DNA from: a virus
Taxonomy: Duplodnaviria > Caudoviricetes
IMG/VR virus record: IMGVR_UViG_3300021255_000062
Span: 1 to 64,000 of that record
Strand: one strand, 5' to 3'
DNA: 64,000 nucleotides
How positions within the stretch are numbered: position 1 is the first letter of the stretch; the number at the start of each line of letters is the position of its first letter. The position numbers were made by a program, and so were the translations under genes. The notes under the pieces were generated by a model, which had not been told where the DNA came from, searched no databases, and saw only the letters and a program-made list of their open reading frames with translations. Positions 53,286-58,205 of this stretch are shown here, one piece after another.

Positions 53286-53489
53286 ATGATTATGGAATGG
53301 GAAGAATATAAAAACCAAGAAAAAGATAAGTTTAAAATATCTGGTTCAAACGACTGGGTGAAAACCGAAATAACATGCCCCAAATGTGGAAGCTCTGTAT
53401 ATAAAAACATAGAGGTAGTTTTAACCAGCTATCCTCCGCACTATCAGTATAAATGTATTAGCTGTGATTGGGTAGGCACGTGGTATTAA
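53286..53489 (+). CDS. zinc-ribbon protein
   Basis: CPKC...LTSYPP.YQYKC..C. Confidence 0.7.
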   Translation: MIMEWEEYKNQEKDKFKISGSNDWVKTEITCPKCGSSVYKNIEVVLTSYPPHYQYKCISCDWVGTWY

Positions 53490-53490
53490 T

Positions 53491-53519
53491 TTGTTTTTTT
53501 AATAAAATTTTGATATAAT
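53491..53519 (+). promoter_or_regulatory. sigmaA-type promoter for HNH-dnaE unit
   Basis: TTGTTT-17-TATAAT with TG. Confidence 0.65.
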
Positions 53520-53555
53520 ATATATAGAATAAATAGAGGAGGCGTGTGAAAACTT

Positions 53556-54188
53556 ATGCAAGGAATTGATATAACTGGACAACGCTTTGGTCATTTAGTT
53601 GCTTTAAAGTTAATACCCAAAGAAGAACGTACTTGGAGTAATAAAGAAAGGGCTTGGTTATGTAAGTGTGATTGTGGTAATGAAGTCATAGTGCGACAAA
53701 GAAATTTATTAAGCAGTAGACCAACCCGTTCTTGTGGATGTTTGCGTAAAAAAGAAGCGTTCAAGTCAACTAATATGATAAAAGGGTTAGAAGATGAATT
53801 TTTAGATAGTTTTAATGATTTTGATAAATTTCTTTTTATTCATAGAACTATTCGCACTGCAATAGGAAATTTTAGTAGTTTAGAAAAGGATAAATATAAA
53901 GAACTAATAAACCACTTTTATAATCAAAAACAATTTAATGATATATATAATTTTTGGTTATCTCAAGAAAAAACTGATACTTTTTATGATTGGGCAAAAC
54001 CTTCTATTGACCATATTATTCCCAAAGCAAAGGGAGGCACTAATGATTTAAACAACTTACAATATCTTACAGTTTTTGAGAATTTAAACAAACGAGATAT
54101 GACAATGAATGAGTGGAATAATTTTAAAAAACTAACTCACACAAGTAGTGATTATTTTTATGAGTCAATTAAGGAGGTGATGCAATGA
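53556..54188 (+). CDS. free-standing HNH homing endonuclease
   Basis: N-terminal DITGQRFG.L...WLCKCDCGN...SCGC domain; C-terminal PSIDHIIP..KGG.N...NLQ.L...EN..K. Confidence 0.85.
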   Translation: MQGIDITGQRFGHLVALKLIPKEERTWSNKERAWLCKCDCGNEVIVRQRNLLSSRPTRSCGCLRKKEAFKSTNMIKGLEDEFLDSFNDFDKFLFIHRTIRTAIGNFSSLEKDKYKELINHFYNQKQFNDIYNFWLSQEKTDTFYDWAKPSIDHIIPKAKGGTNDLNNLQYLTVFENLNKRDMTMNEWNNFKKLTHTSSDYFYESIKEVMQ

Positions 54189-57100
54189 AAAATCAGTTAA
54201 GATACCCAGGATCGCTCCATAATCATACTGATTTTTCTTAGGTGATCCAATTTTCGTTTGCGTGACAGTATTAACACTGTCGAGTCATTAATAGATTATG
54301 CAATAGAACTTGGTCATGAAGTAGTAGCGATTACTGAACATGATACAATAGCTAGTGCTATCAGAGCGGAAAAATATTATAGCAAAATTAAAAAGAATAA
54401 TCCGGACTTTAAACTTATTAGAGGTAATGAGATTTATCTTGTAAGAAATGGATTAAATAATGATAACTTTAAAAAAGAAACAGATAGATATTTTCATTTT
54501 ATTCTGTTAGCAAAGGATCTCGAAGGTCATAGACAGATTCGCGAGATTTCTTCGCGTGCTTGGATGAGAAGTTACATGGCGCGCCGTATGAGAAGGGTCC
54601 CAACTTATTATCAAGATTTAATTGATGTAATTGGAAAGAATCCTGGCCATGTGGTTGGGTGTACGGCATGTTTAGGTGGGTGTCTTCCAACTCAACTTAT
54701 CCGTAATAGAGATACTGGCGCACCGAGTATGGACTTGATTAAACGATGGATTGTTCAGATGCAAGGTATTTTTGGAATAGATGACTTTTATTTCGAAATG
54801 CAACCATCATTTAATAAAGACCAGATTTATGTAAACAAAAAATTAGTTGAACTTAGTGAAGAAATGGGTATCAAATATATTATAACTAACGATGCTCATT
54901 ATTTAAAAAAAGAAGATAGACCAATTCATAAGGCTTTTCTTAATGCTCAGCAAGGAGATAGAGAAGTTGACGATTTCTATGCAACGACCTATTTAATGAG
55001 TGATGAAGAAATTTATCACTATATGGAAGAATCATTAGGAGAAACAGTTTTACAAAAAGCATATCAAACAATAGAAGAAATTAAAGATAAGTGTGAAGAC
55101 TATTCATTAATGAAACCGCTAAAGATTCCAAGATTGAATTGGAAGACTTTTGATGTCAAATCAGATGCGGTAAAATTTTTAAGTGATAAAATCCCTTATT
55201 TAAAAAGATTTCTCGAATCAGAATATGCAGAGGACAGACATTTAGCATATGCAATTATTGATAGATTAACCAATAGTAAAGCAGAAGATGAATTATGGAA
55301 CAAAGAAACTTATGAAGAAATTAATGCATGTCTTAAAGATACGTGGGTATCATCAGAAGTAAACGGAAGTAGATGGAGTGCTTATTTCTTAAATCTTCAA
55401 AATATAATTGATGCTTGTTGGGACGCAGGAACTCTTGTTGGCTGCGGCCGAGGCTCTGGAGTTGGTTTTATTTTGTTATATCTATTAGGTATAACTCAGA
55501 TAAATCCACTAAGAGAAAAAAGTCAAACCAAAAGATGGAGATTTCTTAATCCAGAGCGTGTGTCAGTCCTTGATGTAGATATTGATATCGAGGGCGGACG
55601 GCGTGCAGACGTATTAAAAAAGTTTCGTAAAATTTATGGAGAAGATAGGGTCGCTAATGTATTAACATTAAAAACAGAAAAATCTAAGTCTGCAATTCAA
55701 ACAGCTTGTCGTGGATTGGGAGTAGACAGTGATATATCTGCATATCTTTCTTCATTCATTCAAGCTGATAGAGGACAGCTTCGAACTCTTAAACAAACTT
55801 TTTACGGAGATCCCGATAATGGGATTAGTGCCTCCCATCAGTTCAAATTAGAAATGGAAGAGAACTATCCAGAAGTCTGGGAAGTGGCGCAAAGAATTGA
55901 AGGATTAATCAATGGCTGTGGGGTTCACGCGGGTGGAGTTATCTTTGTAGATGAGCCTTTCACAAAGTCAACCGCATTAATGCGAGCGCCAAAAGGAGAA
56001 ATTATAACTCAATTTGATCTCCATGATGCGGAAGATACAGGACTTATTAAATATGATATCCTATCCGTTGAAGCATTGGATAAAATTCACAATTGTATTG
56101 ATTTGATTTGTAAATATGGCTATGAAAAAAGAGAAGAAACATTAAAAGATACCTATGAAAAAATTATTGGTATATATAATCTTGAACGTGAAGCGCCAGA
56201 GATGTGGCAGATGTGTTGGAATCATGAGGTAATGAGTTTGTTCCAAATGGAAAAACAATCTGGAGTAAACGGAATTGCAGCAATGAAACCAACTTCTGTA
56301 GATGACTTGGCAATTCTCAATTCAGCAATTCGTCTTATGGCGACAGAAAAAGGTGGAGAAATGCCAGTTAATAAATTAGCTAGATTTAAAGCGCATCCAT
56401 CTGATTGGGATTATGAATTACAAAAATATGGACTTGGCGCTGAAGCAAAAGAAATTCTTGAACCAGTTCTTAATGTATCTTACGGTTTATGTATTGCTCA
56501 GGAACAATTTATGCAACTTGTACAGCTACCTGAATTAGGTGGATTCAACCTAACCTGGGCAGACAAGTTAAGAAAGTCAATTGCAAAAAAGAATCCGGCA
56601 CAGTATGAAGAGTTAACCAAAGAATATTTCAAGGTTATAAAAGAAAAAGGTTTAGATGAGCGACTTTGTACTTATGTATGGAATGTACTTATTGCAATGA
56701 GTAAAGGTTATGGATTTAACTTATCTCATACGTTGGCTTATTCATTAATCGGATTGCAAGAGTTAAATCTTGCATATCGTTATCCAACAATTTTATGGGA
56801 TTGCGCTTGTCTTATCTCTGATAGCGGCGGTGTCGATAAAGAAGAAGAGGAAGAAGATGGAAATAACGAAGAAACAACTAGAGGAAATGTTTGGGATTCG
56901 TTTGATGACATATCAATGGGTGTTTTTACAGATGATGAAGATGGAGAAGTGGGAGACATTGATTTATCTCCCACCAAGAAGAAATCGTCAAACAGAACTG
57001 CTAACTATGGCAAAATTGCTACAGCAATTGGAAAAATAAGTCAAGAAGGTGTAGAAATTATAGCCACAAATATAAATAAGTCTGAATACACCTTTGCACC

Positions 57101-58205
57101 AGATGTAGATAATAATAGAATTATTTATGGTTTAAGTGGTATAACTAGAGTTGGTGATGATTTAATTCGTTTAATTATGAATAATAGACCGTATGAGTCA
57201 ATAGAAGATTTTATTGGTAAAGTTAAAGTTAATAAACCACAAATGATTAATTTGATTAAGTCAGGCGCATTTGATGAGTTATATGGCGGCGATCGTGTAG
57301 TTGCAATGAATAAGTATATTGATTTAATTGCCGACAAAAAGAAAAGAATGACATTACAAAATATGCAAATGTTAATTAATTTTGGTTTCATTCCAGAGGA
57401 ATATGATTTTCAATGTAGGGTTTACAACTTTAACAAATATTTGAAAAAACATAAAATTGATAATTCATATGGTATTGATAATGTTGCTCTAACTTTTTAT
57501 TCAAACAATTTTGATATGGATTTATTAACTCCTTCTGATGAATATGTATTTACTATAAAGCAAACTGATTGGGATAAAATTTACAAAAAGCAAATGGATA
57601 TTATTCGTCCATTTATTAAAGAGAACAATCAAGAGTTGTTAGATAAAGTAAATAATAAACTTAGACAAGATTTATGGGATAAATATTGCTCTGGAACTTT
57701 AAGTCAATGGGAAATGGATTCTATTTCTTGCTATATTCATGACCATGAATTAAAGAATCTTAAAAATGGATTTTATGGATTTGCAGAATATAGTAAACTA
57801 CCAGAGAATCCGATAGTAAGTTATGAATTTCGTTCTAAAGAAACTGGTCAAAAGATTCCATTATTTAAAATTTGTCGTATTGCTGGAACAGTATTAGACA
57901 AAGATAAAAATAAGAAAATGATTACTTTGTTAACCAATGATAGTGTTGTAACTGTAAAAATATTTGGTGATGCTTTTACTCATTATGATAGACAAATATC
58001 AGAAAAGCAACCAAATGGAACTAAAAAGGTAGTAGAAAAGTCTTGGTTATCAAGAGGAAATAAAATTATAGTAACGGGGATTAGAAGAGAAAATAATTTT
58101 ATAGCGAAAAAATATAAAAATACTCCATATCATTTAGTTGAATTAATAACTTCAATTAGTGATGATGGTTATATTACAACTCAAAAGGAGCGAGTTGAAG
58201 TATGA
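54185..58205 (+). CDS. dnaE: DNA polymerase III alpha (DnaE-type), reading frame interrupted by a 10-nt insert at 54239-54248
   Basis: AAGGAGGTGA RBS and ATG 54185 give MKNQLRYPGSLHNHTDFS*, continuing in +1 frame as SNFRLRDS; AITEH, TNDAHY, GRGS, LDVDID, HAGG, KYDILS motifs. Confidence 0.9.

Follow-up and report, generated by a model that had tools for sequence, protein, structure and literature searches.

Programmed translational bypassing, in which a ribosome leaves one codon and resumes decoding at a matched codon further along the messenger RNA (mRNA), so far rests on one bacterial-virus example, gene 60 of phage T4 and its homologues, and on one yeast mitochondrion. The T4 gene 60 bypass sits within a MobA homing-endonuclease element (Bonocora et al. 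2011, as cited in PMC5009743). A survey from 2022 reported gene 60-like bypasses in topoisomerase genes only (Manning & Atkins, bioRxiv 10.1101/2022.08.31.505936), and a 2016 review of recoding stated that no natural in-frame stop hopping was known (PMC5009743). Here we describe an interruption of dnaE, the gene for the replicative DNA polymerase, in an uncultured gut phage. The window, that is the whole stretch of DNA that was analysed, comprises positions 1 to 64,000 of IMG/VR record IMGVR_UViG_3300021255_000062, and in it 10 non-coding bases separate the first 18 codons of dnaE from the rest of the gene. Comparison with related loci suggests, at a probability of roughly 0.78, that the phage obtains full-length DnaE by means of a short programmed translational bypass. 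No published report of a hop in dnaE was found in a full-text literature search.

The dnaE element resembles T4 gene 60 in that its take-off and landing codons match and a stop codon stands directly 3′ of the take-off codon, in that a replication enzyme is interrupted within a highly conserved metal-binding motif, and in that an HNH endonuclease gene is found directly upstream. Both also have a 5′ stem-loop that can form from mRNA leaving the ribosome. Shared with the wider gene 60/MobA family are alleles that keep the gap without the nuclease, as well as replacement of the nuclease by GIY-YIG or Vsr-like genes (bioRxiv 10.1101/2022.08.31.505936). Conversely, the interrupted gene is dnaE rather than topoisomerase II, and the host gene is not split. 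The gap measures 4–12 nucleotides (nt) across alleles and 10 nt in the window, compared to 50 nt in gene 60, with no room for the gene 60 layout of a take-off/A-site hairpin and a mini-Shine-Dalgarno (SD) sequence. The nascent chain at the break is only 12–18 residues long, with no dedicated peptide signal, and there are three insertion sites and many gap lengths. Finally, the 5′ stem-loop is the best conserved element here, while it is not conserved among gene 60 homologues. The window dnaE element is thus an analogue, not a member, of the T4 gene 60/MobA family.

Three other systems are close enough to be compared. Synthetic 'stop-hops' and +5/+6 hops in E. coli (Weiss et al. 1987 and later work, as reviewed in PMC5009743) also involve a peptidyl-tRNA that re-pairs a few bases on, across a stop, and the +6 alleles (TCT TAG TCT and AAC TGA AAC) and the +5 allele (AAC TG AAC) among the relatives described below have the same layout. 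Those hops were laboratory constructs with an efficiency of about 1% and no stimulators, whereas the dnaE series is natural and conserved, in an essential gene with a conserved stem-loop. The mitochondrial byp elements of the yeast Magnusiomyces capitatus, as summarised in bioRxiv 10.1101/2022.08.31.505936, are likewise short mobile bypassed inserts in essential genes, and wobble and near-cognate pairs are tolerated there. In that summary, byps differ in being 27–55 nt long, in having an unassigned sense codon instead of a stop, in belonging to a eukaryotic organelle and in having no endonuclease linkage. The +1 frameshift of prfB, which encodes RF2, is similar in that a stop in the A site and a nearby SD-like sequence favour loss of P-site pairing. 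In prfB, however, re-pairing takes place on an overlapping codon, with the SD located 5′ of the shift site, whereas here the +1 frame is closed and the tRNA would have to re-pair 10 nt away.

The interrupted reading frame

The phage record from which the window takes the first 64 kb is 125.9 kb long, has direct terminal repeats and is rated complete. The features that make up the start of dnaE are as follows.

54171 to 54180, plus strand: extended SD sequence AAGGAGGTGA of the dnaE leader, read in the sequence
54185 to 54241, plus strand: leader open reading frame (ORF) of 18 codons, MKNQLRYPGSLHNHTDFS, followed by TAG; it encodes the first strand of the PHP domain with the HxH metal motif
54236 to 54238, plus strand: candidate take-off codon TCT (Ser18)
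54239 to 54248, plus strand: 10 non-coding bases, consisting of the stop TAG (54239–54241), GTGA and the candidate landing codon TCC (54246–54248)
54249 to 58205, plus strand: main dnaE frame from AAT (Asn), with the remainder of the PHP domain and the Pol III alpha, finger and HhH domains (Pfam)

Read from ATG 54185, the leader ORF closes with TCT 54236–54238 and then TAG 54239–54241. The long dnaE frame of 1,319 codons is shut by TGA 54243–54245, opens at TCC 54246–54248 and continues with AAT TTT CGT TTG CGT GAC. This layout had been laid out in the original prediction from the letters of the window, and re-reading the coordinates bore it out. The same prediction had argued that neither a simple +1 shift nor read-through of the TAG would rescue the gene, and both routes were confirmed to be blocked: the +1 frame from the shift codon, which a prfB-like shift requires to be open, is closed by TGA 54243–54245, and read-through ends at TGA 54263–54265. 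Within the 10-nt gap, TCC 54246–54248 is the sole TCN triplet, and it falls in the same codon box as TCT.

The Staphylococcus, Geobacillus, Arcanobacterium and SPbeta phage homologues read HNHTD(F/V)SN(F/Y)RLRD unbroken. Among the 120 closest database relatives, 75 are contiguous across the motif and begin M..L.(F/Y)P.SLHNHTDFSNFRLRDS, while 45 were called from a later start. Because the homologues are contiguous at HNHTDxSNxRLRD, we conclude that exactly 10 nt are extra in the window dnaE. The Pfam PHP profile matches the long window ORF from profile position 6 and a contiguous relative with 92% identity from position 2. The LHNHTDFS of this relative aligns with LHQHTQFS of Thermus (Taq) DnaE (solved structure 2hpi), which is the first metal-binding motif. 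The proposal that removing exactly 10 nt restores the HxH strand of the PHP domain is therefore upheld by the contiguous homologues and by where the profile starts. Conversely, the idea that homologues natively begin at the LRDS position does not agree with the 75 contiguous relatives and the cultured-phage homologues, all of which carry HNHTD upstream of it.

The insert is real; that it might be an assembly error had been raised together with the prediction. Assembled contigs, which were used for this check instead of raw reads, span positions 54185–54311 without an indel in three studies: one matches exactly, another (2025) differs by 15 substitutions over 738 nt, and the third (2021) has the variant T54243C in the gap itself.

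The only replicative polymerase gene that can be recognised in the complete 125.9-kb genome is dnaE, and no PolA or PolB was found. All three stop codons terminate genes in this phage, whose long ORFs end in TAA (47), TAG (17) or TGA (16). Its 16 tRNA genes are clustered on the minus strand outside the window (G000:C1:115468-119149), and no tRNA gene lies within the 64 kb. They include Ser(UGA), Ser(GCU) and Asn(GUU), the isoacceptors relevant to hops at the Ser and Asn sites described below, and comprise neither a suppressor tRNA nor a tRNA-His. Decoding of both TCT and TCC by tRNA-Ser(GGA), as first suggested, was an assumption; the phage itself encodes tRNA-Ser(UGA).

Broken alleles in related phages

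To compare the 5′ ends of related genes, dnaE DNA of relatives was taken from IMG/VR, metagenome contigs and genome bins. Close relatives of the window DnaE number in the hundreds and come from gut and rumen metagenomes. A megablast search against cultured phages gave no match, tblastn with the HNH protein yielded no close cultured relative, and these searches pointed to no culturable system. The genome collection contributed only bins of metagenome-assembled genomes, adding one His-site allele (L286), and a pattern scan of IMG/VR for Ser-site alleles added a single new locus (L200). Three truncated database relatives (P0062, P0085 and P0105) were decoded from their frame-shifted N-termini only. 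The comparison covered 126 distinct related loci with enough upstream sequence.

In 35 of these 126 loci dnaE is interrupted, always inside the eight codons L-H-N-H-T-D-F-S and at three sites, namely after the first His, after the Asn and after the Ser. As the same kind of break recurs in dozens of diverged relatives, a chance origin can be excluded. We distinguished 27 insert types, which together cover all extra lengths between 4 and 12 nt. The expectation that broken and contiguous alleles would both be found among relatives was thus correct, but the inserts are not one fixed 10-nt element as had been envisaged. They are given here with the final triplet after the hyphen.

Ser site, after TCT: TAGGTGA-TCC (window), TGAGG-TCT, TGAAG-TCT, TAG-TCA, TAG-TCT, TAGT-TCT, TAGCG-TCA, TAGTGGG-TCT, TAGCGCG-TCT, TAGCGAAA-TCT, TAACAA-TCT, TAGG-ACA
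Asn site, AAC: TGAGG-AAC, TGAGGA-AAC, TG-AAC, TGA-AAC, TAGG-AAT, TAGGGTG-AGC
Asn site, AAT: TAGGG-AAC, TAGGG-AGC, T-AGC
His site, CAT: TAGTT-CAA; TGACC-CAA; TAGTG-CAA; CAT: TAGTT(T/G/A)ATT-CAT

A stop codon lies immediately 3′ of the last sense codon in all 27 insert types (TAG in 19, TGA in 7 and TAA in one). The final triplet shares its first two bases with the last sense codon in 23 of the 27, where chance would give 1 in 16. The remaining four types land on AGC for Asn (three types) or on ACA for Ser (one type), where anticodon pairing is possible at two or three positions if G.U pairs are allowed. The combination of matched codons with a stop directly 3′ of take-off, first noticed in the window alone, hence recurs across its relatives. 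Eight insert types are in frame (6, 9 or 12 nt), and since every one of them retains the stop, the insert is probably not meant to be translated. The choice of codons differs as well. All 15 loci broken at the Ser site have TCT as the take-off codon, versus two of the 62 contiguous alleles, where the Ser codon is TCA (n = 25), AGT (n = 19), AGC (n = 10), TCG (n = 4), TCT (n = 2) or TCC (n = 2). The landing codon at this site is never AGY, the Ser codon of 29 of the 62 contiguous alleles.

The leader conserves GSLHNHTD(F/Y)S despite abundant synonymous change (TCG/AGT/AGC/TCT, CTC/CTT/TTA, CAT/CAC, AAT/AAC). Because the residues stay constant through this change, the leader appears to be translated and selected as a protein, and the pattern indicates purifying selection. 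No conserved restart codon follows the break: five alleles have no ATG, GTG or TTG at all within 40 codons, and TTG 54258 of the window is the usual Leu codon of RLRD, present in contiguous alleles too. Upstream, the broken alleles have sites of the GGAGGTGATG type, while the contiguous alleles have AAAGGAGTAA behind a TATAAT-like box.

Taken together, the patterns of stop, matched codons, TCT, leader and restart codons point to re-pairing of a peptidyl-tRNA, in other words a hop, and not to a frameshift, read-through, a split gene or decay. We propose that a ribosome starting at ATG 54185 would have TAG, a stop, in its A site on arriving at TCT (Ser18). The peptidyl-tRNA-Ser would then release TCT, the mRNA would move forward by 10 nt and the same tRNA would re-pair at TCC 54246–54248. 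Decoding would restart at AAT 54249 to give ...LHNHTDFS-NFRLRDS..., with YPGSLHNHTDFSNFR as the predicted tryptic peptide of the junction. These steps derive from the comparison of alleles, which lends support to the originally proposed programmed bypassing in a phage replicase through the matched codons, the stop, the in-frame variants that keep it, the lack of a conserved restart and the selection on the leader.

RNA structure around the break

Judged from the alleles compared, the most conserved signal is a 5′ stem-loop abutting the take-off codon, which the original prediction had missed. Its two arms in the window are:

54188 to 54197, plus strand: 5′ arm AAAAATCAGT, a perfect 10-base-pair (bp) match with 54227–54236, supported by covariation
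54227 to 54236, plus strand: 3′ arm ACTGATTTTT, ending on the first base of the take-off codon

This stem-loop is the minimum free energy structure of positions 54183–54252 (−14.6 kcal/mol). Complementarity between the opening codons of the leader and 8–10 nt ending 0–3 nt before the take-off codon is seen in every site class, and the 3′ arm shifts its position together with the take-off site. Further arm pairs at the Ser site are AAAAATCGGT with ACCGATTTTT, AATAGTCG with CGACTATT, AATAATCG with CGATTATT and AATAATGGG with CCCATTATT; Asn-site arms are (A/G)TGAAGAC(T) with (A)GTCTTCAT, and His-site arms AAACTAC(T) with (G)GTAGTTT. All 21 broken IMG/VR alleles have a helix of 7–10 bp with at most two G.U pairs, whereas 54 contiguous backgrounds average 5.3 bp and 2–6% of them reach 7 bp (Mann-Whitney p = 2 × 10−13). 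An independent second set of 19 new broken alleles from metagenome contigs contained 17 that obey the same rule (p = 2 × 10−11), so that 38 of 40 broken alleles overall have a stem-loop of 7–10 bp. Across nine aligned Ser-site alleles, 93.7% of cells pair, compensatory double changes occur in three of seven pairs, and none of 500 shuffles reaches the covariation score. When the partner is slid by a single base, the pairing collapses. Because the helix occupies the first codons, broken alleles start with MKNQ, MKT or MKTT and not with MDKL or MEKL.

At take-off, the 5′ arm and the loop would be outside the ribosome and the 3′ arm in its exit path. By calculation, the freed 5′ part gains −8.2 kcal/mol from folding after a slide of 10 nt, compared to −2.0 kcal/mol before it. 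In our model, re-forming of the stem-loop as the mRNA exits the ribosome probably drives the slide. Such a 'driver' role has been proposed for the 5′ stem-loop of gene 60 (bioRxiv 10.1101/2024.12.09.627546), and the slide energies computed here fit that idea.

Two further structures were predicted close to the gap of the window allele.

54209 to 54216 with 54241 to 54248, plus strand: alternative helix, GGATCGCT with GGTGATCC, 8 bp, z −3.1
54260 to 54285, plus strand: predicted hairpin and possible forward barrier, starting 14 nt downstream of the first landing-codon base; prediction only

The alternative helix pairs the whole gap with the Gly-Ser-Leu codons of the leader and crosses the 5′ stem-loop as in a pseudoknot. 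The natural variant T54243C converts G54214.U to G:C within this helix and also weakens the anti-SD match of the gap. This match, to the 3′ end of 16S rRNA, extends over 9 nt in the window. An SD-like gap element is present in the window and the TGAGG alleles and absent from TAG-TCA, TAGCG, TAGTT, TGACC and others. With most alleles lacking it and T54243C weakening it in the window allele, anti-SD complementarity does not hold as a rule of the family. We also rejected co-adaptation of the entire local fold with its flanks as a general rule: the local fold of the window is better than all 54 chimeric backgrounds and the signal is strong for the window, L119 and L021, but the median rank is 0.31. 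A take-off hairpin of the gene 60 type (12 bp, starting on the take-off codon) is found in L119 and L021, the TGAGG and TGAAG alleles, with a change from G.U to A-U, and in weaker form in L132, L143 and L144. Rfam gave no match at positions 53400–54600.

Several inserts are near-perfect reverse complements of adjacent codons (L119:2493-2520; L021:2043-2070; L011 and L134, TCTTCA TAAC TGAGGA; L043, ACCCATTA TTCT TAGTGGGT). Such complementarity may have arisen by snap-back synthesis when an endonuclease cut was repaired, as much as it may be a sign of function.

Homing endonucleases and competing explanations

The gene directly upstream of dnaE in the window is the following.

53556 to 54188, plus strand: free-standing HNH homing-endonuclease gene, 210 amino acids (Pfam HNH PF01844, E-value of 2.8 × 10−5)

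Its TGA overlaps the start codon of the dnaE leader (ATGA). The end of an endonuclease gene lies no more than ~190 nt from the break in 21 of 35 broken loci, versus four of 91 contiguous loci (odds ratio 33, p = 4 × 10−11), and through this linkage the parallel with T4 gene 60 holds statistically. HNH genes of the window type occur in eight loci, all with the break at the Ser site; the seven orthologues outside the window are 54–81% identical and lie directly upstream of dnaE. One GIY-YIG family (Pfam) is present in 11 loci, all with the break at the Asn or the His site. Fourteen of the 35 broken loci are nuclease-free yet retain the leader and stem-loop. Loss of the nuclease while the gap is kept is the 'hit and run' pattern known for MobA elements (bioRxiv 10.1101/2022.08.31.505936). 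As expected for intronless homing, a nuclease gene with a catalytic motif adjoins its presumed target gene, and the target differs between nuclease-bearing and nuclease-free genomes. From MobA and gene 60 we infer by analogy that the insert protects dnaE from cutting by the adjacent endonuclease. Based on the linkage data, the 10 nt would be a scar or immunity mark of the upstream HNH gene, disrupting the presumed target of its enzyme in the most conserved DNA of dnaE, much like the 50-nt gap of gene 60 in relation to MobA.

Selfish elements are also found elsewhere in this region. In L164, L172 and L180, a second, distant GIY-YIG/NUMOD1 endonuclease (1603-2457) overlaps with the beginning of a contiguous dnaE, and synonymous differences rather than an insert may shield these alleles. 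The N-terminus of the window HNH enzyme (53556–53760) is a 60-residue Cys-rich module (W.C.C.CG...SCGC). This module is repeated two to five times in larger proteins beside recJ (L021:562-1932, L015:1273-2643, L011:1516-2400 and L006:1515-2432), which end in a conserved ...IPLIRIPYWHY..ITIDDL domain, possibly a nuclease, that Pfam does not name. They occur beside broken and contiguous dnaE alike. Assignment of these zinc-finger-repeat proteins to Vsr/PD-(D/E)xK was not confirmed by Pfam and was dropped. Upstream of dnaE in a relative (L026:49-2354, also L135), a recJ-like gene is split by a GIY-YIG gene (1054-1752).

Many related dnaE genes, N-terminally broken or not, contain further long interruptions at two other conserved places, while the window gene has none. 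These follow ...RFLNPxRVSVLD at about codon 440 (L189, L191, L193, L234 and L265), or lie at codons 409–446 (L164, L172, L185-L187, L148, L278, L043 and L182) or codons 753–839 (L145, L147, L151, L158, L168, L176-L178, L184, L188 and L144). From their sequences, they look like group I introns or nuclease inserts, which marks dnaE of this phage group as an apparent hot spot for selfish elements. In three relatives, an otherwise intact dnaE carries a single in-frame TAG at a conserved sense position (L166, codon 669; L231, codon 111; L267, codon 317). In some relatives, amber may thus be reassigned or suppressed, which is not the case in the window phage.

Several points weigh against a hop in dnaE. 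Its support is wholly comparative and the host is uncultured. The nascent chain has just 18 residues, in which a peptide signal is indistinguishable from the conserved PHP sequence. Four landing triplets are near-cognate only, and the in-frame alleles could in principle be read through. The window allele has no take-off hairpin of the gene 60 type, and the 3′ arm of its stem-loop would sit inside the ribosome at take-off, which makes the role of the stem-loop as a driver a model. The explanation that would most readily take the place of the hop is a split gene, which we nevertheless consider unlikely. Here, translation stops at TAG and a second initiation takes place at TTG 54258, behind the SD-like AGGTGATCC, yielding a DnaE without its first strand; the 18-mer would work in trans or not be needed. 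Starts of this kind are annotated by gene callers, T4 topoisomerase functions as split subunits (bioRxiv 10.1101/2022.08.31.505936), the window gap has its 9-nt anti-SD match with the TTG 9 nt beyond, and a TTG shares bases with the stop (TTGA) in the TGAGG and TGAAG alleles. However, the broken alleles share no restart codon with an SD, five of them having none in the stretch surveyed, and TTG 54258 is an ordinary RLRD codon that contiguous alleles possess too. The natural T54243C weakens the SD match, and the His-site alleles would have to obtain one His of HxH from a 12-residue peptide. The matched codons, the TCT rule and a stem-loop that tracks the take-off site would be left unexplained.

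Less probable than a split gene is that dnaE is dead or dispensable, its insert an unrepaired endonuclease scar, in a phage replicated by the host polymerase. The broken alleles are known from metagenome assemblies alone, 14 of the 35 no longer have the endonuclease, and selfish elements are concentrated in the region. Against this, broken alleles make up 28% of the total in lineages at 43–100% identity and are broken at this motif only. The rest of the 1,300-codon frame is open, barring intron-like inserts that contiguous alleles also have, and the leader appears to be under purifying selection. Moreover, dnaE is the sole polymerase gene of a complete genome with direct terminal repeats, and the rules for stop, landing codon and stem-loop would not persist in a dead gene. 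We give even less weight to an ordinary +1 or −1 frameshift or to stop read-through that adds a few residues. An alternative frame does run open through the gap in some alleles (+4, +7 and +8), the +1 frame is opened in the X5 variant (TAGGCGATCC), and alleles with in-frame inserts could be read through. In the window allele, however, both shifted routes meet TGA 54243–54245 and read-through meets TGA 54263–54265. There is no slippery overlap, the added residues would land in the HxH strand, the matched end triplet is not predicted, and the phage has no suppressor tRNA. Finally, removal of the 10 nt from DNA or RNA before translation, by micro-splicing or editing, seems barely credible, and the same applies to an assembly error. 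The insert was assembled in three studies with no joint skipping it, and a contig from a sheep-gut RNA library retains the Asn-site insert of a relative (CAT AAC TGAGG AAT CAC), a weak argument as DNA carry-over is possible. Rfam has no match here, and introns of 4–12 nt are not known.

Building on the short hop, we tentatively suggest a more general model, to which we would give somewhat less than an even chance. Its core is a minimal natural 'zipper-driven' hop module, consisting of a stop, a matched codon 4–12 nt further on and a stem-loop with its 3′ arm in the exit channel. Re-forming of the stem-loop would pull the mRNA by about its own length, and the HNH and GIY-YIG endonucleases would each have installed such a module in this one motif as self-immunity.

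The dnaE series is a large natural set, with three sites, 27 insert types of 4–12 nt and near-cognate landings in one essential gene, and as such it may serve as a ready-made mutational scan of what the ribosome needs for hopping. The single, simple, conserved stimulator to which it points bears on the question of what drives forward movement in bypassing. For genome annotation, it implies that gene callers truncate or split such genes, as 45 of the 120 closest database proteins start downstream. The series further suggests that homing endonucleases are able to force recoding on their hosts, and to do so more than once. If the zipper module is true, efficient short bypassing would be a general, portable trick and not a T4 oddity.

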